A stretch of 64,000 bases of DNA from Fistulifera solaris (Eukaryota), in assembly GCA_030295235.1 (NCBI GenBank), contig AP026125.1, positions 1,798,001 to 1,862,000 of the forward strand, read 5' to 3'. Positions 1 to 48,172 of the stretch are shown here, piece by piece; within the stretch, counting starts at the first letter, position 1; each line of letters begins with the position of its first letter. The notes beneath the pieces were generated by a model. That model searched no databases and was not told where the DNA came from. It worked only from the letters and a program-made list of their open reading frames with translations. The position numbers and the translations under genes were made by a program.

Positions 1-2011
1 GAGAAGTCGATGGCGGCCTTCAAACTTGTTCATAGCGAGCATGATTTTCTGAACGGGCCATACCAGGGTCATTGCGAGCATTGTGCCGGAACTGAACACA
101 AAGAAAGATGAACGCTGGCGAGGAAATTCCGATCGATTTTTCGCGAGGGCTTTCGAAACCTTTGTGCGTCGCCGATCATCTCAACAACGCACTTTTGAAG
201 CCTCGAGGCAACCCGCTTGAATATATTGACGTGAAGAAAGAATATGACTGCTTGCATTTGACTTTGTTGAAAAATCACGAGAAGAAAGGGAATTTTCAAT
301 TGACGCCCGAAACAAATCCGGATGATGCGTGCGTCAGCTTCTGAACTCGAGGAAAGGAGGCCCGATTGGATCGATGAAGAATCAGCAGCTCTACGTCATG
401 ATCCTCCCTCGGCATTAAGTTGTTTCTGCGCTGGCAGGGAGGTCTGTAATATCATGTTGCTGGACTTTCCGAAAGACCACTTCGCTGTATCGACCGAGCC
501 TGGCGAAGAATCCGTTCTGTTTCTGACTCTCCAAGTCATGGGGAAAGATAGCAATCAGTACACGATACTCCCGTGATTTATCGCTGACGATGACCATCCG
601 GAATTTTGTCCTGTTCGACATTTGTTGGCGACATCTACGCTGCTGGCATTGGAGGAATGCGTAAAGGATACTTGTTTCCGGAATGGAAAGAGCTCTCCGG
701 TCATATGCAAGCGCTTCAAAGATAAAAGCCAGTTGAGACGATCATTCGAAGAGCCAGTAAAGTACGACGACTTTCTTAAGAGACTCAAGGTGCGTTTCAA
801 AATTCAAATTCAAATCGTTGTACTGAAAGTGGCTGTTGTTTACTCCGCACTCACCGTTTTTTCGGTTGTTCTATAATACAGAACTGTATTAAGACCTCTT
901 TGGGGCCAGAGTACGATCCTAAACACATGACTGTTGGAACGCATTCACTTAGAAAGACTGGTTTTCTCTTTGCCATTTTCGGCATTCAGAGCCGTTACCT
1001 TGAGAGGGCGTGCGTTCTTTTGAAAGTACGCCGAAAAATCAGCCAATCGAAGACGTCGCCTTGTTGAAGTCCGCGCCATCACGCTAAAAACGGACACCTC
1101 CGTTTACCATCAAGACGCTCTTACGCTTTTTTGCCGATTATCGTCGTCAACCGCATCTCCAGCGACTTGAACAGGGTATCGGGATGGGAGTCTATTTGGG
1201 TCGCCAATGTCGATCATCGCAAAAACAACGACGACACAACATCCACGGACATGAACATCATTGACGTGGCAAATTTCTTCGTCAAGAAAGAACTCGGCAT
1301 CACTATCAGCCACACGACGTTCGGACGGAATTCTCGTTGCGGTAAGGAAGCAAAGGGGAAGCAACTGAGTGCGGAGGAGGAGTTCAATCAGCTTTTCGGC
1401 GATTTGAGTGTCACTGTCAAGCAGAACATCTGGATGTTCGCCAATAAGAAAAAAATTGTGTACCTGCGCTTGCATGCCCATGAAGATATGGAAATAGGTA
1501 CGAAAATTCGTGATCGCTCTCTCTTACGGAACCCTTCATCATTAACTCGATCTTTGTTCACTGCAGACAACAATGATAACGGCGAAAGCAACGGACGGAG
1601 ATGACGGTGACAATGCCAAGAAGCCGGAAGTTGGACAGCGGCAATAAAAAAGTCAAGTCGCTACAAGCAAGGCAGTATGGAACTGTGAGTTACGCCTCTC
1701 AGAGGGATGAGCTTTCTCAAGCTGTCGCTCGCCAGAAGCAAGCTGTCAAAAATCAATCAGGAATCTTAGAATGTCGCAAAGCTGTTTTTGATCTCGTCAA
1801 GAAATTTGCCAAGCTCGAGAATCCCACTGGAAGTAACAATCCAGATGCAGTTGATGGGCCATCTCATACTTGGGTGAATAAAATGCGAGATTCAGCAAAA
1901 AAGTATGCCAAGTGTATCGAAACTTGCTGGATGGACAAGGGTGGAATCGACGGCTTCATGGCTCTGCCGGTGGCTCTTGCTAGCTCGGAATACAAGTGCA
2001 AATGCCAGTAG
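1..2011 (+). mobile_element. Tyrosine recombinase gene, frameshifted and 5'-truncated by the window edge; Crypton-like candidate
   Basis: Hand-joined frames give LYVMIL-LGIKLFLR (catalytic R, ~390-435), FCPVRHLL (~605-628), GYLFP (~667-681), a GT-AG intron at 790-881, THSLRKTG (HxxR, 939-962), KSAxH (~1066-1082) and VYHQDA (putative catalytic Y, ~1102-1119), then a long C-terminal region in ORFs 1131-1604 and 1601-2011. Confidence 0.75.
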
Positions 2012-2551
2012 GTCGGCAATGCATAGGTCATCATACATATAACTACATATTAATAGGTAATTTACATGATTAAACGAGTTTTATCTGTTTTACATGTCGA
2101 TTGCTGTGATTTTTGTTTCGGTCGTCGTCGATGAGCTGAAAATGTGAGATGACGATTTGGCTTTCTGCGATGGGGTTGAGGGTAGAAAGGTAAAGTTTAC
2201 CGTGCGACGCGCAGACTGCGAAGTTTTTTCGGAGGTGTTCGCACATTGAGAACGAAAAGCTCGTCAGTGCCGCATAGTCGGAACTTGAGTACCGGATGGA
2301 CCCGGTGTGCCTGGTGCACAACCACAGAATATCATCTTCACCTCACACCATGGTCGCAACTCCATTATTTTTCTAATCAAGCATTTCACCCAACTCATAC
2401 ATCATGACAAGTTGCTTGTCGGTCGTTGATTACTGTTTGAGATAGCCTCTTTGATCCCACGCTTCATACCTTTCTGCTGACATAAAAATCAATAGCCACA
2501 CTCTGTGCAACAAGAGAATAAGACGAAGAAAAGGAACTACTTCGTATTACA

Positions 2552-3547
2552 ATGGGAAGATTATCGCGTGACAAACGCGACATCTTCTATAGACTAGCCA
2601 AGGAGAAAGGCTACAGGGCCCGGTCTGCCTTCAAACTTTTGCAGCTTGATGCGGAATTTGATCTATTCGGATTAAAGTCGGACGATGGGTTGAAAGTTCG
2701 ACGATGTGTGGACTTGTGCGCGGCTCCTGGTTCGTGGTCACAGGTACTTGCCGATAAATTGTATGAGATCAAAGAAGAACTGCGGAAAAATGAACAGGAT
2801 GGTCGATCGGGTGCACCAATAGCAAACGACCAAGGCATTAACTCGATCCCCGATATTGTCGCGATCGATTTGCAGCCCATGGCACCCATCGATGGTGTCG
2901 TGACCATGCAAGGGGACATCACATCAATTGAAACAGCGCAACGTGTCATTGAGCACTTTCAGGGCGAGCGGGCAGAGCTAGTGGTATGTGATGGAGCGCC
3001 CGATGTAACGGGGCTACATGATGTAGACGAGTATTTGCAGAGTCAGCTGTTGTTGGCAGCCATGCTGATCACAACGCATGTTCTTTGCGACAACGGGACA
3101 TTCGTGGCAAAGATCTTCCGTGGTCCCAACATCGGTTTCCTGTACTCGCAGCTTCGGCTTTTGTTTGAAAGAGTCAGCATCGCCAAACCGTCCAGCTCAC
3201 GGAACTCGTCTATGGAGTCTTTCGTAGTCTGTCAAAAGTTCAAAGGAGCCCCTTATCAAAATTTACCGCTGGATATTGGTGGTTATATTGACTTGAGAAG
3301 GATGAATGCCTCGAATGAACATGACGTGTCCAACGCACAAAGTTTCTACGATTTAGATCCATCCGTCGTCCCTTTCATAGCCTGCGGCGATTTGAGTGAT
3401 TGGAGTTACAATGGACAAGTTTTGGACGCGGATAAGAGCTACCCAATCGACGGTGAGCAGTACAAACCACCGATTGCTCCTCCAATCAACCCTCCATACA
3501 AACAGAGCATAGCATTACAAAAAGAAGAGCGGAGAAAGATGGCTTGA
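2552..3547 (+). CDS. TRM7: tRNA (C32/G34) 2'-O-methyltransferase, FtsJ family
   Basis: [71 protein letters not shown]; intact intronless ORF. Confidence 0.95.
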
Positions 3548-5483
3548 CAAGAATGCTGGGGTACGTAATTAGAGATGCTTTTTGTCGATTCGCACGGGGA
3601 TTTACTTTATGGCGTTTGAGATTCTATCTTGAATGTTGTTTTACTCCTTCTGCAAGAACAATGTTGTCTGCTTTGCCCTTAGTGATCGTAACACAGTCGA
3701 TCATTGAGCTTTACCGATGGACCCACATACTGACTATTCATGCTGCAAATTTAGATAGGGAAGGTTTTTATTGCTACTTTGCGGGAGAATAGAAACAAAA
3801 GGATGGTTGAGCTCAATCGCAAGAATGTTGAAACTGCTCTTTTCTGAGTTACATCGTTATACCGCGAATGCGTCGCCTTCCAATGCTTGCGAACGTCTGA
3901 CTCGGTATGCAAGATCTGAGACGTTGACGGGGTAGACTATGAGATTCGGGTGAAAGATGAGTGGAGAACCATGCATAAAGCCTATTGTTTATCTCGCTCT
4001 ATTGAGATCATTACGTACAAAGAGATAGACACTTGATTTGGCATGCAACCTTGACTTCGTCCTGACACATGACAGCTGGCAGCTTTACTCAAAGGATCGT
4101 ACGTTACACTTCCGTTTTTTCATTAGAATAAAGAAGCCATGTACAGTTCATACAAAGGTCGTTATTGGGTAAATCTTTGGTAGTTGCATGGTCGTCGGGT
4201 ATACTCTTGTCATGTTTTGTTATTGTCTGGATGATTGATTTAACGGGTATGGGGTATATGTTCTCTCTAGTTGGATAAAGACCAAGCAACGCGAACATAA
4301 ACTGAACCTGGTCTGACTTCGAAGGGCCAAAGTCATGCTGCCACTTCGAATCAAACCAATTTGGAATAACTAACCAGGAGGAATACTTGCTGCACTTTCT
4401 TTAAGCGGAATCCATGGCTATCCTTCCTGTTGCCCTTCGCTTCGCCCATGTTCGATCCACTCCTTATTTTCGTTCTCAGTATCAAATCTTCCTGCCTTTG
4501 TTGTTCCGACCCGCTTGTTATTAGCTTGCCTTGTCAATCCCAGACACTAGTAGGTTATTATTCGATTGTTAAAGTATGGCTCCGTCGTCAAAGAAGTTGT
4601 CTGCACCAGTTCTTGCGGATGATACATGATAAGTCCACAACTGACTTGATTGTCGAGACATGTCTTGGGAAAATTAAAGGGATCGATGAGTACTGATTTA
4701 TGATTTTATTTCATGCGACACTCGTCACTTTCACGGGCCTCGATCGACGCGTTTTGCCGTCAGGAGTGTCAAATCTTGCAGAATAGAACATTAAATTGAG
4801 CGCCTTTCGGGTCACTTCCGTCTTCATACCATCTTCTTGATGCAGAGTGATAATATTCATCAAAGAAATGCCATGAAATGAAAGGTTTTCCGTCCCAAAA
4901 TTGACCGTTGCGGTCGAATGAAGTGGGTGCAAAAGAATGGGCCAAAATGATGGGCAACCCCTTGCATTTTGCAGCAAAAATTCACGGTTTGCTACACTAG
5001 CTTTTCAAAGTACATTTTAATTTAGTCTAAGTATATTAAGTAGTTTTGACTTCGGAGCGGTACTTCGCTATTGCGACATGTCGGACCGAGTATCGAAAAT
5101 GTCGCTCAGGAAGCACGGACAGACTGGACCCTCTTTCAGACTCGTGACCAAAATGGAACACCGTGACTCGTAATCTTCGTACTATCTTCTCCATAGTTGA
5201 CGTCAGCATGCAGAGCTTTTGCCTTTATTTTGCTCGCACACACCGCTGCCGATCATACAATGGCGACCATGGCTATGTGGCAGGACGTGCAAAACAAAAT
5301 GACTCCTTTAATTTCTTTTCATTTCTAGTCAACTTGTCGTCCACTATCTTCAGTAGAGCTGCGGTCGTGGTGCTTAAATAACGAATAACTAGCATTTTTC
5401 TCGTACAGTGGCGATCAAGAATCATATTGAAACGAGCCGATTGCCTTGTCCATCCTTAAAACAACCAAATTTTGAACACCAGG

Positions 5484-25219: not shown

Positions 25220-26493
25220 ATGGCTGACGCTAACGCCAACAACGCCAACCAAAACCTCGCTGCTCCCGTAGCAGTAGCCTTTGCTCTAAGCCCGGCTTGA
25301 GCACCCACCATGTCATCGACTTCTCTACTCGCGAAGGATCTCGCCTCTCACGAAATGGCGACCAAGCAGATTGGAGATGAACGATTCGACTGCGATCCCG
25401 GTCGCATGTCGCTCCTTCATCGAAGGACTTAGCATCCGTGCTAGCAACTTTGGTTGGGGGCCGATCTTCAACATCCCCGACGATATCGAAGCCATCGAGC
25501 CTGTCCAGAACACCACCAACCTCCTCTCCAACTACGGAGACATTACTTTGGAGCACATTCAAGCTCACGCACGCACATACATCGGTACCCAGACCCGTGC
25601 AGCGCATAAGACTCCTACATGGCAGCCAACTGCCTCATTTCCTCTCTAAGCCCAGCCGCCATCGATCGCATCACGATCTGGCGGGACCAGTACACCTTTG
25701 ATGGTATCCCCAGCGGGCCTTGCCTGTTCAAAGTCATCATCCGTGAGACTTACATTGACACAAATGCAACGGTCACGCACATTCGCACGCAGCTCTCCAG
25801 TTTGGACCAGTACTTACCTAAGATTCAGCACAACATCACCAAGATGAACCAGCAAGTTAAACAGCTATTGGAAGGCTTGGCAGCGCGAGGGAGAAACCAC
25901 AAACGATCTTCTTGCGAATCTCTTTAAGGGTTACAAGGCAGCCTCCGATCGCACCTTTGTCAACTACATCCTGAAGAAAGAAGAAGATTACCACGAAGGT
26001 CTTCCGATGACACCGGATCACCTCATGAACCTAGCAGATAACAAGTACAAGACCTTGGTACAACTTTCTCTGTGGAACGCCTTCGCCGGAAGAAGAAAAG
26101 ATTCTCGCATTGGAGGCAAAACTCCAAAAGTTGGAAAGCAAAAGAAGACCGAAAACAAGCCAAAGCATCAAGCCAAAAGCAAACCCCAGCGCAACAGAAA
26201 CACTCCCAAGCCAGACTGGATGTCGGTGCCTCCAAAGGACGAACCCAAGCAGAAAACAGTTGAGGGAAGCGAGTACTTCTGGTGCGAAAAGCATAACTCA
26301 TGGGGCAAACACAAGACGGTTGATTGTCGCCAAGCCAACATCCGCAGACCGGGAGTCTCCAAACCCGAAGGCGAAGAAAGAGCAACTCGTCAAAGCGCTA
26401 GCTGCACTCCTCAATGACAGCGACAGCGATGAGGACGACAACGTAGATGAGTATTCGGACGCAAGTGACAACGAAGCAAGCGACAGTGAATGA
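25220..26493 (+). CDS. gag: Copia gag (frameshifted in this sequence)
   Basis: ATG at 25220; PSGPCLFKVII, NLFKGY, LMNLADNKYK, knuckle WCEKHNSWGKHKTVDC, acidic tail ending in TGA at 26491-26493. Confidence 0.8.
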
Positions 26494-29400
26494 CTTACCA
26501 AGTCTATCTGGCGGTACCTCAGCTTCAGCTGGGACTGGCTTCTTGCCTGCACCGCAACCCTGATCTACTGCTTGTTCTTTGACCACGTTAATGAGATTGC
26601 GACTCGCTACATTCCTAAACGACTTCGAAAGGAAACCATTAGTAAGCAATTGAAAACACTTGGTCAACGGGTCTGCAGTCCAATTCAGACTTACCTGGTC
26701 CGCATTCACACAGTATGGATACGAAATTCCACGGCCCGAACGGTCCTTCACAAGAGGCTAAAAGCAGCAAGGCAGGCACTCTACTTTTCTCATACACCAC
26801 TCATTCGATTCCGCAATCCAATAGCCAGATGGTGGAGACAATGGAAACTGCGTCAAAGGAGATATGTGTTAATGATGACAGCGATGTGTTACAGTGCAAA
26901 CGCGGTCCCACAAGTACTTACCAAGACTTTTGATACCGATTCAGTTCCAATTGGTGTCGACAATAGATGCTCAGCGTGCATCTCCCATGTCGCGACGGAC
27001 TTTGTTGGAAAACTACAGGAGACCAACTTGATTATCAAAGGCTTTGGCGGTAACCGCACCAGCAATGTGATGAAAGGCACTCTGAAATGGTCATGGGAAA
27101 ATGATGAGGGCAAGATGACATCATTCACGATTCCAAACTCATACTACGTACCAGACGGCAAAGTTCGACTTCTATCACCGCAACATTGGGCAAAATACAC
27201 CGGAAACAAACTCTCTGGATGTGATACCACAAGCAAACATGCGATTCTGTATTGGGGCAGCAACAAGAAAACAATTCCGATTGATCCACGTTCAAACGTT
27301 GCAACGTTTACTCCGCCCCCTGGCTGCCGCGAATTTCGAAACCTTCTGCTTCAAGCATCGATTCCTGACGATGAAGACGACAATCCGCTTTGTTTCGATG
27401 CAAACACAGTCGACACAACACCTTCAGAGGGAGCGAGCGCAGATTCAGAGGGAGCTGAACCATTTCGCAGCCGCACAGTTGACTTCGAGTTCGACGGCAA
27501 TCAACAACAACACAAACTGGTCATACAGGAAAGTGACACAACAACAAGTCAAACTGTTCCAGCAGCCGAATTGCTCACTTACCATCGTCTTTATGGTCAT
27601 GCGCCGATGGAGAAGCTTCAGGAATTGGCAAAGCAAGGAGTTATTCCAGCCGACTTGCAACGTGTCCGACACCGGTGTGCACCGCCTGTTTTTACGGAAA
27701 AGCAACAAAGCGTCAGTGGCGAACGAAACCAGCTAAACAAAGCAAAACCCTTCACAAGCCTACTCACCCCGGCGAAGTTGTTGCTGTGGATCAAATGGTA
27801 TCACCCACGCCCTGGCCTCATTGCGCAGCTCACAGGAATCTTGACGACAAAACGCTATTTGTACCACCGTCTTCGCCGACCTTTATTCCAGCTTGAGTTA
27901 TGTTCACCTGCAAAAGACACAAAGTGCGAGTGAGACCTTGGAAGCAAAACACGCTTTTGAACAATACGCTCGAAATTGTGGAGTCGACAAGATCAAACAC
28001 TATCATGCCGACAATGGAATTTTCAATTCGAACACTTGGGTCAACGATTGCGTAACAAACGGTCAGGGACTTTCCTTTGCAGGAGTTGGAGCACATCATC
28101 AAAATGGCAAAGCTGAACGCCGCATAGGACAATTGCAAGAACTCACTCGAGCGATGCTGATCGATGCACAACACAAGTGGCCGCAAGCCATCACAACTCA
28201 CCTGTGGCCTTATGCTTTGCGCATGGCAAACGATTCCATCAACCACATGCCAAACATGAAGCACCCTGAGCGCCGTACTCCTTATCAACTCTTCGCCAAC
28301 ACGGATATTCATTCGAATCCAATTCATTGGAAACCATTCGGTTGCCCAGTATTTGTTCTTGACGCCGCGCTTCAAGGAGGAAAAAGTCGGATATTTCACA
28401 AATGGCGTCTGCGCTCACATCTCGGAATTTATTTGGGACGTTCTCCAGTACACAGCCGTTCTGTCGCCCTGGTACTGAACCCAGACACAGGACTCGTCAG
28501 TCCCCAGTTTCACGTCAAATTTGATTCGAAATTCCAAACTGTTCCGGACCTTGCGAAAACATGTTTGTGGCAACTCAAAGCCGGTTTTATTGCCGCTCCA
28601 AGCGCAAATCCTCAACAATCCACGCCTACATTGTCGGATACACCTACTACTACACCCGCCGACCTCTCTCCGTTACCGATGCCGCTGCCGACCGCGCACC
28701 ACCTGATGACAATGTTCCGTCCACCGATCGTCAACCTGAACCACTTTCCTCTCCATCGCCACCACAATCTCAGAGGGAGAGACGCAGCACTCGCCAACGA
28801 CGTCCCGTTACTCGATTAATAGAGATCATGATCGCAATGTTCGCTAGTGAACTCAGTCAATCATCGGCCGACATCAAAGGGGAACTTTTGCTTACGAATC
28901 TCTTCAAACCGCCTCAGCAAAACTCAATCCACCGGATCCATTCTATGTTTTCAAAACGAGCGCCGACCCCGATTCAATGTATTTGCATCAAGCTCGCAAA
29001 CAACCCGATTGGCCGGAGTTTTCCAAAGGCATGGACGTAAATCGAGGATCAAATGGCAAATGGAAATTTCTCATTGTTTCCAAGGAGTCAAGTTCCAGAG
29101 GGAGCAACGATTCTACCAACAGTATGGCAACTTCGTCGCAAACGAGACATTATGACACGCGAAGTCAAGAAGTGGAAAGCGACTGACTATTGATGGGTCA
29201 CGGATGAAATATGGTCGCGACTATGAATTGACCTACTCTCCGGTTGCTAATTGGACTTCAATCCGCTTGTTACTAGCAATGGTGATCATACATGGTTGGC
29301 ATACGAAGCAACTCGATTATGTTCAGGCATTTCCTCAGGCCAGCGACAAAGAAATTTATCTGTCCATTCCGAAAGGATATACAATACACGGAGCATCCCC

Positions 29401-30569
29401 GGACGATTATGTTCTGAAAGTCCACAAGAATGTTTATGGAGCAAAGGATGCAAGTCGAACATGGTTCCTTTATTTGCGAAAGAAACTATTTGAGATCGGT
29501 TTCAAGCAATCGGAATACGACGAATGTGTGTTTTACTACAAGAGCACGATGTATGTTCTATATACCGGCGACAGTATTCTTGGAGGTCCTAATGAAAAGG
29601 AAATTGAGGAAATTATTGAAAAGATGAAACAGATCAAACTAGACATTACAGTTGAGGGAGATTTATCGGATTTTCTGGGAGTTAATATCAACAGGATCGG
29701 TGAATCAACAATTGAATTGAAACAGCCACAACTCATCGACTCGATAATCAAAGACATGAAATTCGACCAGAAGGAAGTTAAAACAAAGGATATTCCAATG
29801 GCATCATCGAAGCTACTTTCGCAGCATCCCAAATCGCCGCCATTTGACAAAAGTTTTCATTACACTTCAGTCATCGGAAAAATGAACTACCTGACGCGAG
29901 GATCCAGGCCAGACATCGCCTATGCGGTACATCAATGCGCACGCTTTGCATCAAACCCAAGGAAAGAACATGGAGATGCAATGAGATGGCTTACAAAGTA
30001 TCTGATAGGGACAAGGGACAAAGGAATGATTCTGCACCCAGACGTCTCTAGAAGCTTGGAAGTTCATGTCGACGCCCGATTTCGCAGGCAATTGGGATCC
30101 AGAGATCGCTTTTGAGGACCTAAACACAGCTCGCTCCAGACACGGATTTTTCATCACCTATGCCGGAGTATTGTTGCATCACAAGAGTCAACTTCAGACA
30201 GAGATTGCATTGAGTTCCACCGAGAGCGAATTCACCGGATTGAGCTACGCACTCAGAGATGCAATTCCTATCATGAACACTTTGAAGGAGATGCAATCAC
30301 TCGGATTTGATGTGAAAGAGTGGAGGCCAAAAGTCCATTGCAAAGTATTTGAGGACAACTCGGGAGCTCTGGAAATCGCAAAAGTTCCGAAGGCTCGACC
30401 AAGGACGAAGCATTTGAATGTCAAACTGCACCATTTTCGGTCATACGTTGACAGCGGAGATATAACAATCCACAAAATCGATACTCTCGAACAAGTTGCG
30501 GATATTCTAACGAAACCACTCACATTTGATCTCTTTGCCAAACATCGGAAGGCAATTCTCGGATGGTGA
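26494..30569 (+). CDS. pol: Copia pol: protease, integrase, reverse transcriptase, RNase H (multiple frameshifts)
   Basis: PR IGVDNRCSAC; IN HRLYGH..CTAC, VAVDQ, YHADNG, NGKAERRI; RT QLDYVQAF, YTGDS; RH STESE, EDNSGA, ADILTKPL. Confidence 0.92.
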
Positions 30570-30580
30570 GATCGCAGTTC

Positions 30581-30589
30581 GAGAGGGAG
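30581..30589 (+). promoter_or_regulatory. Polypurine tract
   Basis: gagagggag immediately 5' of the 3' LTR. Confidence 0.85.
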
Positions 30590-30957
30590 TGTTGAATAAC
30601 CAGTCACGCACGTGTCTACAATAAACGGAAAGACATGTGCACTACATATTACATGATACTGAAAACGAGAAGCGAACAGCAATCTACCTAATCCCGAATC
30701 CTCGTTATTCAAAGAACTAACAGCTGCCGAAGGAACCTAAACTATTACTGACAAAGAACAATGCCAGCAGCTTCTGCATATTCTACATGAATCAAATGAG
30801 AACAATGAAGAGACAAACAAGAATTCAAATCAATAGGATAACTTCATTTACTAGCTCATAATTTTAACAAGCAATCCGTTTGCAGCAATCCGTTTGCACC
30901 AAGTTAATTTTGTCAAGCCCAATCCATAGACGGCTCCGGCACCTGTGGATTTCAAGA
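30590..30957 (+). repeat. 3' LTR (368 bp)
   Basis: Same sequence as 24788-25155. Confidence 0.95.
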
Positions 30958-31130
30958 AGCAGTATTTTCACTTGTCCAGAAAATGTGGGCAAGGTGGTAT
31001 TTTCACGTCTCCAGAAAATGTGGGCTTGTGAAATTTTCACGTGTCCAGAAAATGTGGGAGTGCAGTATTTTCACTTGTCCAGAAAATGTGGGAGCGTGGT
31101 TTTTCACTTGTTCAGAAAGTTTAGGAGCGC
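30958..31130. repeat. Right part of ~30-bp minisatellite (5-6 units)
   Basis: Repeated gtattttcac(t/g)tgtccagaaaatgtggg. Confidence 0.9.
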
Positions 31131-31310
31131 ATCTATTTCTTTAGACGAGGACATGATTATACCCCAAACGGCAAACGCCAAACGTATGAGCAAAAGTCCT
31201 TTTCTTTTTAAGTTGTCGTTTTCTGTCTGCTACTTTAGCATTTGGGAGCTAATAAGCGTGGGCCTTAGAATAATTGTGTTGTCGAACCTACACGTCAATG
31301 CGTTACTGCC

Positions 31311-32913
31311 ATGAAGATTTCCACCCCGGAAGATGACCATCATGAAGATAAGTGCAAACTCAGGAAGGAACAGAATGATGCGAAAGACCTTCTCGAAAGA
31401 GCTCATGATATTCTCAAAGAAGCCGACGAATCTTACATTGCGAATAACACCGGACCTCGTCGGCGATACCCAACTTTTGATTTATGCGAGATTGAAATAG
31501 GCCCTTTACTGGGGGTCGGAGGCTTCTGCCAAGTTTTTGAAATCAAGGAATTCCGACTTAATGAGCTAGAGCAAATACAAGAAGAAGGTGACGAGACAAA
31601 TGAAAGCAGTACATTAAACACAAAAGACGAGAGCAGCGCTCCATCAAAAGGCGCAACGAAACGCGGTGACAAACGGGTCGATTCTTCCCTAATGAACGAC
31701 GATGATACGCATTACGATATAAGAAGTGCACGCACCACCATGGCGCGACTTGTTCGTAGAAATGGAAGTGCTCGCTATGCCATCAAAAGGCTTCATGAGG
31801 ACTTGAACGAAATCGAACGGGCGCGCGGAATAGTCGATCTAGCTCTCGAGGCCAAATATCTCTCGGTTTTGTGGCATCCTAATATCAGTAAGTATCGTTT
31901 GCTGCGAATGCGCGGTTCCTCTGATGGTCGCCTCACTATTCCGTGTCAAGTAAAAATGAGAGCAATCGCTTCGGGGTCCTCTCTTGACCCCAAATTCTGC
32001 ATCATCATGGATCGCCTCTACGATATATTGGACCATAGGTTTGAAAAATGGGTAGTAACAAAACAAAGGAATAAAGGAGGCTTATTCGGAAGGGGTGCAA
32101 ATCGCGAGCGCTTACACGAATTACTGGTCGAACGCTTAACCGTTGCGTATGATCTGGCTTCGGCGCTCTGTTACATGCACGAGCACCATCTTGTGTACCG
32201 AGACCTGAAAAAGGTACGTTTGTTTTGTGGTCGGTCGAAAGCGGAGAGGAAATAGCTCTTACCTATCTTGCTCCTCATGCTCTGGTCTCTGGACCATTTC
32301 CTTCGATTGTGTCTCTTTCTGGCCATCCCTGGTGATGATCGATCGCGGAAACCCGAACTAAAAGGAAAATCTTGGCTTCGATATAAGGAATGATTTGAAA
32401 GTTTTTGATTTCGGGTTGTGCAAGACGTTGACACCTTCTTTGAAGGCACGCGACGAGAAAGGCAAGGAGGTGTACGGTTTCAACCTTACTCCCCGAACTG
32501 GCTCTATACCATTCATGGCACCCGAAGTGGCGGAATGCAATCCATACGATACACAATGTGATGTCTTTTCCTTTGCCGTCTTGCTGTGGGAAATCATGTC
32601 GTTGAAACCTGTGTTTGATAACTATTCCCGTCGCGAGTTTTATTTGCGTGTCGTGAAACATCAAGAGAGACCCGTGGTTCCACCACGAAGCTGTCCGCCA
32701 CTCGTTCGAGTGGCTGTGAAAGAAGGGTGGGATCACGATCCACAAAAGCGGCCCAACATGAAGCGAATGGCTGCATTGATCCGGGGAGATCTGAACGATT
32801 TGACGAATGATCCGACGATACGAGATCGAACAACACACATGAAAAATCGATCCAGCCACAGTCAAAGGAATATCATGCGTAGTTTGACAACAAAAAGCTC
32901 TCATGGTCTCTGA
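31311..32913 (+). CDS. Ser/Thr protein kinase (TKL-like), paralogue 1
   Basis: LGVGGFCQV, YAIK, HPNI, YRDLK, VFDFG, GSIPFMAPE, DVFSF; introns ~31888-31950 and 32213-32364. Confidence 0.92.
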
Positions 32914-45658: not shown

Positions 45659-46160
45659 ACACCTTCGAAGTAGACAGATGGAAGATGTATATGTGTCGGG
45701 TGCATTCTGCTGTCAGTAGCAAGGCAATCGTAAGGGCTAGTCGTAGGAAGCTTAGCTTATAATTTCCAACTAGAGTGTGTTGTTTATCATTATTGCTTGG
45801 TCTTGATCCATATTTCATTCCGTGATTCATTGTGTCGTGTGTCTCATGGCTCTCGGACCTCGGACCCGCGTGTCCGGATCTTGTGGATGGAATAGTACGC
45901 TATGTACCACAGTCGGAAAAGGGGGAGATTTGTGCTTAGCGCTTTAAAACCGCTATGATGAATACTACTAAGTAAAAATCTTGAATACAGTATTTGTGAT
46001 TATGCAATCCGTGCAAAGCATAAATAATGCTCGAACGTCGAACTTTTTGCGATGATGCTCGGCGTCAACACATAAAAACGCGCAACGCAGTCCTTCGAAT
46101 CAATACTTTTTAAAATTGACGGGTCGATCGATCTATCCTTCGTTGACACTTGGCAGAGCC

Positions 46161-48172
46161 ATGGAAGAATTCAATTATCAGCCTAATGATTTAGGTGCAG
46201 AAACGGGCAATGACCGTCAGCCCAATGTAGCAGCAGGTCTACCGCCAGCAGAAGTGGAAGCGCCGTCTCGGATGGAAGAGTTTGCTGCTTCGAATGCGTC
46301 GATCATTGCTTCCAATTATCAGGTTCGTTTGCGTCAACAAGCACACGAGCCTTTGCGGGCACGTGACCTTCTTCCTCCGGGGTCAGCTTTGATGCTCTGC
46401 GAGCACCTTCGATCGCTCCCCCTGGAACGAAATAATGTCCCAGCAGACCGTCGACTGGTGGTCCGCGTTCGTAACCGGCCTTTACGAGAAGCAAATCGAG
46501 AAACTTTCATTCCGGAACATTCTGTCGATGGAGATGTCGGTACAGTGTGTAGTGAAAGCAACGACGACGAAGTCTTTGGTCCATCGGGTTGGAGTCAAGT
46601 CGAGATGGCTCGCGAACCAGGAGGCGCACCATCGATAGCTCCTTCTCCGCGTTCTTTGCATGCTGGTGCAGTGTTGAATGGAGCAATGTATATCTTCGGC
46701 GGGTACGACGGCACGCAGCGTGTCAATACGTTCCACGCCTTTTCGTTTATCGAAAAGCGCTGGTCGCCCGTTCTTCCGTCTCCTCATTCGCCTCCGCCCC
46801 CGAGTCCTCGCGATCGCCATGTCGCTTTCGTGTTCGGTAACTCATTTTACGTGCACGGTGGTTTCAATGGTCACTCACGGGTCGCCGACATGTATGGGTT
46901 TGACTTTAGTACGATGACTTGGCGTGAAATCAACACGTCGGGTATGACGGGTCGTGTGCCCTCTCCGAGGCACTCGCACTCGGCCGTAGTCTATGGCCAT
47001 TCTTTATTCATTGCGTTTGGATATGACGGAAGCTATAAAAGTGATATTCATGAATACGACTTTGTGAATTCACGTTGGAGTGCGATTGCTGCTGGAGGTC
47101 GTCGGTAAGTATTTTGTCGTTCATCTCTTCTTGCATAGACAAGTGTTGTCAAAGGCTATTCATTTTCACTCCTACTCTTTTCAGACCCCGCCCTCGCTAT
47201 CGAGCCACGACGGTAGTTCACAAGAACTACATGCTGGTGTTTGGAGGACACGATGGAGTTCGTCACTTATCGGACATTAATGTATTTGATCTTGACACTA
47301 AAACTTGGTCAACGTTGATTACAGAAGGGCCGACGCCAATGCCTCGAGACTCGCACGTATCATGTATGCATGGTAACAGCATGTTTGTCTTTGCTGGGAG
47401 CACGGGTTCCGCAATGAATGACTTTTACGAGTTGCAGTTGCCAGCCGGTTCGTTGGATTCTTCAGCGACGGCGCGATGGCGTCCGATCAAGTCGTCGTCA
47501 CGTGACTTTGAACCTCGGCCTCGATTTTGTCACGTTGGCGCTGTACACGATGGAAGCTTGTACTGTTTTGGTGGCTATGATGGAAGAGATCGTCTCAATG
47601 ACTTTGTTCGCTTTGATTTTACGGTCTATGATTTGAGCTTTGAGCTGCCTCCTTCGACGCTCGTTTCGGACTTGCGATCGATGATCAACAACAGCACTCT
47701 ATCGGATGTAACGTTTCTTGTGGAAGGAAAACCTGTTTATGCGCATAAGTTGATGTTGATGCGCTGTCCTTACTTTGAAGCTCTTTTCTTAAGCAAAATG
47801 CGCGAATCTCGCATGACGGAGATACCCATTTCGCAAGTGAGCTATCCTGTCTTCATGTCGATTTTGGAATACTTGTACACAGATCAAGTCAAGATGACGA
47901 CAAGCAATGCCATGGATATATTTGTCGCTGCCGACCTGTTCTGTATTCCTCGATTGAAGACGATGTGCGAGAAGCAAATGCTGCAATCTATAACGGTTGA
48001 CAATGCGGCCTCCATCTTTCATGCTGCTGACATGCATAGCGCAGTCGCGCTGCGTCAAAAGGCTAAGAAGTACGTCGTATCACACTTTGAAGAGGTATCA
48101 AAGTCGAGCACCTTCGAAGAAATGGGACGGAACAACATTGAATTGGTCTTTGAATTGTTGCAAAGTCGGTAA
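46161..48172 (+). CDS. Kelch-repeat plus BTB/POZ protein (LZTR1-like)
   Basis: Six Kelch repeats (PR..H..YIFGGYDG) then SDVTFLVEG..AHK..FEALF..LEYLYTD; intron 47105-47184. Confidence 0.92.

Follow-up and report, generated by a model that had tools for sequence, protein, structure and literature searches.

The window analyzed in this study, a stretch of 64,000 nucleotides (nt) from the diatom Fistulifera solaris (contig AP026125.1, positions 1,798,001 to 1,862,000 of the forward strand), opens inside a recombinase gene that is followed on the same strand by a host gene encoding an FtsJ-like methyltransferase (2552-3547, + strand; Pfam FtsJ, E 9e-50). The coding part of the recombinase gene ends at nt 2011, and the element to which it belongs extends to about nt 2339, 213 nt upstream of the ATG of the FtsJ-like gene, which lies outside the element. 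Window positions 1-2339 likely belong to a Crypton-type DNA transposon of the diatom nuclear genome that is about 3 kb long, and would make up its 3' four-fifths. Its single gene would comprise three exons and two spliceosomal introns and encode a tyrosine recombinase of 778 amino acids (aa). The element is real and probably active.

No single open reading frame (ORF) spans nt 1-2011, and a Pfam search with nine raw frame pieces of the window returned nothing relevant. The frame 1 translation of nt 304-789 (P0001, its single TGA read as X) matched a protein of 456 aa (P0002, E 9e-49), the cluster of which includes the 778-aa full-length protein P0011, a hypothetical protein of F. solaris according to the public record. 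When P0011 was aligned to the window in a frameshift-aware manner, nt 1-2011 corresponded to its residues 168-778, with 598 of the 608 aligned residues identical, along a path of 24 frame segments with 21 frame switches (12, 7 and 2 in the three exons) and one 3-nt insertion. All six catalytic codons were found in the window letters, and the protein's own methionine lies 167 residues, or about 501 nt, upstream of the window start. The preliminary description of this stretch, made from the letters alone, had assigned the catalytic set R..HxxR..H..Y (LFLR, HSLRKTG, SAxH, VYHQDA) as well as CPV and GYLFP to adjoining frames, downstream of a Cys/His stretch (CEHC..H..RGNP). Each of these motifs was recovered on the P0011 path. 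Because of the strength of the P0002 match and because the same motifs are conserved across the family, this agreement is far beyond chance.

All exons and introns are located on the + strand. The 3' part of exon 1 (1-789) encodes residues 168-428 (255 of 258 identical, 12 frame switches), in agreement with the P0002 alignment, and contains the CxxC..CxxH module (C192 at 73-75, C195 at 82-84, H226 at 177-179, with RGNP following), Arg309 (429-431), Lys347 (544-546), CPV and GYLFP. Exon 2 (882-1497) encodes residues 429-632 (199 of 204 identical, seven frame switches), among them His449 and Arg452 (942-953, HSLRKTG), His495 (1077-1079, SA|RH), the catalytic Tyr504 (1105-1107, VYHQDA) and the start of the conserved C-terminal region. 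Exon 3 (1567-2011) adds residues 633-778 up to the stop codon at 2009-2011 (144 of 146 identical, two frame switches and the 3-nt insertion). It contains a basic linker resembling a nuclear localization signal (about 1615-1680), a three-helix module and the codons for Cys747 (1913-1915), Cys751 (1925-1927), Cys775 (1997-1999) and Cys777 (2003-2005). The exons are separated by intron 1 (790-881; 92 nt, GT..AG; P0011 joint ..FLKRLK|NCIKT..) and intron 2 (1498-1566; 69 nt, GT..AG; P0011 joint ..HEDMEI|DNNDN..). The 92-nt GT-AG intron proposed earlier is therefore real: the P0011 gene model has it, intronless relatives align over its junction without interruption, and the ORFs of six relatives end right after ..RLKV at the same place. 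The count of one intron did not hold, since the second is also present.

A search with residues 280-778 of P0011 retrieved 30 proteins, and a profile search with a 34-sequence alignment of the family (A2) gave 23 matches, all from the same family. Except for two diatom records, the members are unnamed metagenome proteins of 670-780 aa, one of which is labeled 'integrase' by JGI, and we found no published description of this recombinase family in open-access text. Residues conserved in A2 include the CxxC..CxxH module (C192, C195, C223 and H226), GIKLFLR (R309), GK (K347), EFCPVRHLL..GYLFP, GTHxLRKTG (H449 and R452), SARH (H495), Y504 and the terminal Cys cluster; C747, F761 and C775 of the C-terminal module are conserved as well. 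The order Arg-Lys-His-x-x-Arg-His/Trp-Tyr is thus present as R309, K347, H449, R452, H495 and Y504, in columns conserved in the full-length members of A2. With the patterns used, neither the viral_contigs (five pattern matches) nor the prokaryote genome_contigs (52 pattern matches) contained a relative. An exhaustive representative search with a corrupted 162-aa piece yielded five matches, of which four were real and one (P0008) was a chance match of a repeat protein; the damage to this query means that its match count says little about family size.

At the structural level, the AlphaFold model of the recombinase (predicted local distance difference test, pLDDT, 79.9; predicted template modeling score, pTM, 0.67) had Cre as its top Foldseek match (3crx_A; E 6.8e-4, TMt 0.63, probability 1.00). 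VIA-align superimposed 302 residues on Tre/Cre (Z 16.0, root-mean-square deviation 3.8), covering model residues 53-520, with lower scores for XerH (13.8), lambda Int (13.4), Tn1549 Int (12.8) and Flp (10.1). In the Atlas, residues 30-525 were placed among eukaryotic recombinase clusters (NDC10_II, Phage_integrase, DUF3504 and DUF3435). A PDB sequence search with P0011 gave no match at E<=10. The rebuilt protein is thus a two-domain Cre-like tyrosine recombinase with a full catalytic set, and the outcome named in the preliminary description as refuting, a protein without a recombinase fold, did not arise. The predicted layout would start with a Cre-like core-binding domain, followed by the inserted CxxC..CxxH module, which is probably zinc-binding, a Cre-like catalytic domain (R-K-H-R-H-Y) and, at the C-terminus, a helical region specific to the family that includes a basic linker and ends in a Cys cluster.

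The C-terminal extension had earlier defied assignment to a known domain, and this holds for its last 128 aa despite a confident fold. Folded alone (model m3993ed985efc, pLDDT 86), they formed a three-helix bundle with a Cys-bearing tail. The best VIA match (Z 6.6 over 65 residues) and the best Foldseek match (E 1.7) of this piece were both within the noise of the respective tool. For residues 521-778 the best Atlas value (0.75, a fungal GCR1_C/NDC10_II cluster) was below the tool's threshold for a lead. The KKRK-type basic run in the linker resembles a nuclear localization signal and may act as one.

The frame switches allow two readings: either they are errors of the consensus, or the copy at the window locus is a true dead pseudogene with 1-2-nt indels, in which case the intact sequence in the reads would come from other copies. 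We compared window positions 1-4000 with Logan contigs from four runs, namely X1 ('organism A'), X2 (a wetland metagenome), X3 (a sediment metagenome) and X4, of which X1, X2 and X3 are independent studies. X1 provided a single contig of 2892 nt (depth 66) that spans 1-2333 and departs from the window at 5 substituted positions and by 32 gap letters, and the 1,602 nt compared in X3 differed by 1 substitution and 18 gap letters; X2 agreed with both on the window indels. Among the 12 indels listed (22 further ones exist), every run covering the position left out the window's version, and the window's version of 1-2333 was present in no contig of the four runs. Intact versions of the gene were found in four other records, on contigs of 3,138, 31,167, 13,020 and 3,993 nt.

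The distribution of the differences argues in the same direction. The X1 contigs were identical to the window letter by letter over 2310-3400 and 3698-4000 (1,394 nt of flank with 0 gaps and 0 substitutions), and the FtsJ-like gene, intact and identical to the X1 contigs, served as an internal control. At least 27 of the 32 gap letters fell before nt 1664 and about one in the 675 nt adjoining the unique flank (rough Poisson p 0.001-0.02). Among the 12 indels listed, the mean distance to the nearest CpG was 1.83 nt, compared with 5.03 nt for random positions (p ~0.003), with six of them directly after CGC and two lengthening A or T runs. Neutral decay produces an indel-to-substitution ratio opposite to the one observed here, where indels exceeded substitutions 6- to 18-fold, and we therefore read the frame switches as consensus errors and not as decay.

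For the pseudogene, it can be said that 21 frame switches do stand in the window letters. The element depth of 66 in X1, compared with 17-29 per flank haplotype, also indicates more than one copy, and contig simplification could hide a minority copy that is broken. Against it stand the excess of indels in both X1 and X3, their near disappearance beside the unique flank and absence within it, their clustering by CpG and short runs, and the lack of the window's version in any of the contigs, and we regard a dead copy at this locus as unlikely. It is likely that the frame switches are consensus errors inside a repeat that were missed by polishing, and they are possibly linked to CpG methylation. 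The gene was thus 'hidden', as initially described, in the window letters, where frame-hopping is true, but not in the read-derived contigs; about 32 indel letters have no read support. The real copy or copies would be intact and at least one of them transcribed and spliced.

Transcription is indicated by X4, the contigs of which cover only 1209-1650 of the element, so that intron 1 lies outside this RNA-like cover. Intron 2 was spliced out in an X4 contig (joint from 1495 to 1565, cut +2). Just past the stop codon of the FtsJ-like ORF (3545-3547), another X4 contig skipped a GT..AG stretch of 194 nt (3560-3753), which is either a 3' untranslated region intron or a sign that the ORF runs on into a further exon. 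As X4 skips GT..AG stretches in both the element and the neighboring gene, the simplest view of this run is that it represents RNA, and on this view transcription and splicing of the element are probable.

Downstream of the stop codon lies the 3' non-coding part of the element (2012-2339, + strand), which the X1 repeat contig follows to nt 2333. A DNA alignment of the window with two relatives, L001 and L002, showed that two of its blocks are kept in distant relatives, CTGCGA(A/G)GT (2216-2224) and TGAGTACCGG (2286-2295). Contigs of both X1 and X2 track the element to nt 2339 and then each continue into different sequence, giving, together with the window itself, three distinct continuations beyond this point. 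One X1 contig bridges the element and the chromosomal flank of the window without a difference (2310-2629). On the other hand, one X2 contig matches 2334-2893 with 0 differences and has 155 unlike letters in front, and it appears to represent the flank without the element. The six letters ATCTTC (2334-2339) are common to the element end and the element-free flank, which is exactly what a recombinase crossover core would leave, and this right terminus is a probable crossover core. On inspection, the X2 contig letters that immediately precede 2334 look similar to those of the element at this place, which hints at the targeting of pseudo-sites. The depth of the element exceeds that of the flank, its right end point has more than one junction, and one site appears to be unoccupied; together these observations fit a mobile element.

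Searches with 1-2100 (blastn and tblastx) for further copies within the window gave self-matches only. X2 additionally contained a 476-nt contig corresponding to window 146-614 that carries 32 substitutions and has a depth of 61, about 4-6 times the depth of the remaining element contigs of X2. The same sample thus contains a relative that is both diverged from the element and more abundant than it.

Of the 24 letters past nt 2339 in X1, 20 of 22 positions matched the spacer of the metagenome relative L002, a value equaled by none of 300 shuffles. By reading, the match is collinear, since TGAGTACCGG precedes it by 47 nt in either sequence, which gives X1 a head-to-tail (3'-to-5') junction. L002 itself consists of one unit of about 3.1 kb in permuted order: the 3' two-thirds of the gene are followed by a 644-nt spacer and the 5' third of the gene, and this permutation requires a tandem array or a circle. 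A head-to-tail junction form is thus supported, with which circle and tandem array fit alike. Of the 30 family proteins, 27 are encoded on contigs of 1.9-4.4 kb that are nearly filled by the recombinase ORF, many of them about 3.1-3.2 kb long. Within L002 1683-1837, the spacer also has a GGGTGCAC(C)-type 10-mer in five copies and an inverted repeat whose perfect 12-nt arms (1792-1803 and 1810-1821) are 6 nt apart. This layout is the one expected of recombinase binding sites, but it is located about 70 nt past the point matching the window crossover, and the matching part of the window's element lies outside the window.

The junction form raises the question of whether the element is a small extrachromosomal circular replicon or tandem array, in which the recombinase, like FLP of the yeast 2-micron plasmid, would control copy number or resolve multimers, and chromosomal insertion would be incidental. 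The permuted unit of L002, the X1 contig joining the right end to spacer-like sequence and the many relatives on contigs of 3.1-3.2 kb all fit such a replicon. Nevertheless, the element depth is about 2-4 times that of one flank haplotype and not plasmid-like, an exact X1 contig connects the element to the chromosome, X2 has a different chromosomal junction, and the unit leaves no room for a replication gene. We consider this replicon improbable, more so than the dead pseudogene.

Domestication, with loss of mobility and service as a host recombinase gene, one of the options raised in the preliminary description, would agree with a gene that is intact, has introns and is apparently expressed. 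It conflicts with the presence of multiple copies, several right-end joints, a contig with the flank alone and relatives on short, repeat-like contigs. The catalytic set is complete here, whereas domesticated Crypton-derived genes lack most of the tetrad according to the published survey of Cryptons by Kojima and Jurka (2011; PMC3212892), and domestication is very improbable. The weakest alternative, a fragment of a DIRS-type retrotransposon with reverse transcriptase and RNase H upstream, gains from the window opening inside the gene with the upstream sequence out of view and is nonetheless next to untenable, since P0011 has its own start codon 167 residues upstream, the X1 repeat contig reaches only 571 nt past the window start, the ATG in L002 is preceded by spacer and by the 3' portion of a further recombinase copy, and relatives' contigs, at about 2-4 kb, have no room for a reverse transcriptase. 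These same observations uphold the earlier statement that no reverse transcriptase or RNase H accompanies the element; the nearest and sole reverse transcriptase in the window (copia-type RVT_2, 29156-30115) is 27 kb away and unrelated.

What remains is the Crypton-like tyrosine recombinase element suggested at the outset, a recombinase-only unit of about 3 kb with several junctions and an unoccupied site. The conserved 3' non-coding block would contain the site on which its recombinase acts. The resulting head-to-tail form of the element, a circle and/or a tandem array, would integrate at chromosomal sites with the same 6-bp core, here ATCTTC, and leave this core at the junction. It is conceivable, if doubtful, that the element represents a distinct and unnamed Crypton-type lineage of about 3.1 kb, characterized by the CxxC..CxxH insert and a helical Cys-tipped C-terminus, active today in diatoms, cycling through circular or tandem forms, using pseudo-sites that mimic its own ATCTTC-containing site, and widespread in environmental metagenomes while absent from Pfam.

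Several points weigh against this interpretation as a whole. The 'empty site' of X2 is represented by one contig with a 30-letter consensus and could be explained by another rearrangement. The window shows the right end only, the left end being located upstream, so that the 6-bp direct repeat, the total length and the lack of terminal repeats are presumptive. At the right end seen in the window, a clear inverted-repeat recombination site is not apparent; the stretch 2005-2420 contained neither inverted nor direct repeats, and the motif GGTGCAC near the right end was not significantly enriched (10 occurrences in the window versus 5.3 expected, with 4 of 100 shuffles reaching 10). X4 is not recorded as RNA, its nature being deduced from the spliced joints. 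Logan contigs lose minor variants, and they show that the intact form exists while an indel-laden copy may persist in the source strain. Finally, Pfam gave no match above threshold for P0011 (none at E<=1, including Phage_integrase, PF00589), and among the 34 family members weak matches were limited to Phage_integrase in three (best 4.4e-3) and NDC10_II in three (best 2.9e-4). This we ascribe to a family too divergent for the Pfam model, and the fold and the motifs carry the assignment.

Additional features were observed in the flank and further downstream. In X1, the FtsJ region was present in two versions (2704-3100 and 3472-3727), the one identical to the window at depth 29 and the other at depth 18.8, with 32 substitutions in 397 nt in the second version, so that two haplotypes or subgenomes differing by about 8% are present in the genome. 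X4 likewise had both versions within 2704-3102: a contig over 2704-3102 with 32 differences, and another over 2704-2813 that equals the window. A second transposon, a long terminal repeat (LTR) retroelement, occupies 25848-32255 (+ strand), with same-strand ORFs in different frames at 25848-26417, 26494-27933, 27845-28819, 29156-30115 (the copia-type reverse transcriptase mentioned above; RVT_2, E 2e-30) and 31269-32255. Decay, or else consensus indels like those of the recombinase element, has split its polyprotein. At 46056-48172 (+ strand), a pair of ORFs that overlap in different frames both encode Kelch repeats, the second also BTB/BACK; they belong to a single Kelch-BTB gene that an intron or a frameshift divides.

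Cryptons are rare and poorly understood, and to our knowledge none has been shown experimentally to transpose. An intact, spliced and strain-polymorphic small element of a diatom, with a defined end and a conserved non-coding block, would be a tractable object for the model of integration from a circle, and its end point and junction form are defined well enough to put the Crypton model to the test in a diatom. It could also provide a site-specific integration tool for diatom engineering. The family is without a Pfam model and is annotated merely as 'hypothetical protein'. More generally, when a gene spread over adjoining frames combines near-perfect residue identity with almost no substitutions, consensus errors within a repeat should be suspected first. 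If the indels in this element mark CpG methylation, its assembly errors would report that the host methylates it.

Among known systems, Cryptons are described in the same survey (PMC3212892) as recombinase-only DNA transposons with terminal direct repeats of 4-6 bp and no terminal inverted repeats or long repeats, which are thought to move via a circular intermediate. According to this account, CryptonS elements occur in oomycetes and one diatom (Phaeodactylum tricornutum), have a conserved C-terminal region and no GCR1_C, and end in 5-6-bp repeats, mostly TATGG. Our element is like CryptonS in its stramenopile host, the recombinase as sole protein, low copy number, the absence of GCR1_C, a C-terminal region conserved within the group and a short terminal core that is probably repeated. 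It is unlike CryptonS in its right-end core, which is ATCTTC and not the TATGG of most of them, and in having no C48 peptidase. The A2 profile search retrieved no named Crypton, its 23 matches all belonging to the family itself. Where tested, the element agrees with this definition of the Crypton class, and its likeness to CryptonS is one of host and layout.

With CryptonF, including Crypton-Cn1 and the derived Ndc10/Cbf2, the family shares the weak NDC10_II matches in 3 of 34 members. In contrast, GCR1_C (PF12550) was found in none of the 34 at E<=1, and the sole link of the C-terminal part is the sub-threshold Atlas value. DIRS1-type retrotransposons likewise have a eukaryotic recombinase and circular or tandem forms, but the unit of about 3 kb described here is without reverse transcriptase, RNase H and methyltransferase, and no terminal repeats were seen. 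The closest structural counterpart is Cre of phage P1, together with Tre, XerH and lambda Int, with which the model shares the two-domain fold (302 residues aligned to the 320 of Tre chain 5u91_F) and the R-K-H-R-H-Y residues in the same order. The diatom recombinase, however, shows about 10-12% identity, belongs to a eukaryotic host and is encoded by a spliced gene, with no 13-8-13 type site identified in the window, and it carries an insertion of about 130 residues with the CxxC..CxxH module between the two domains and a C-terminal extension of about 260 residues.

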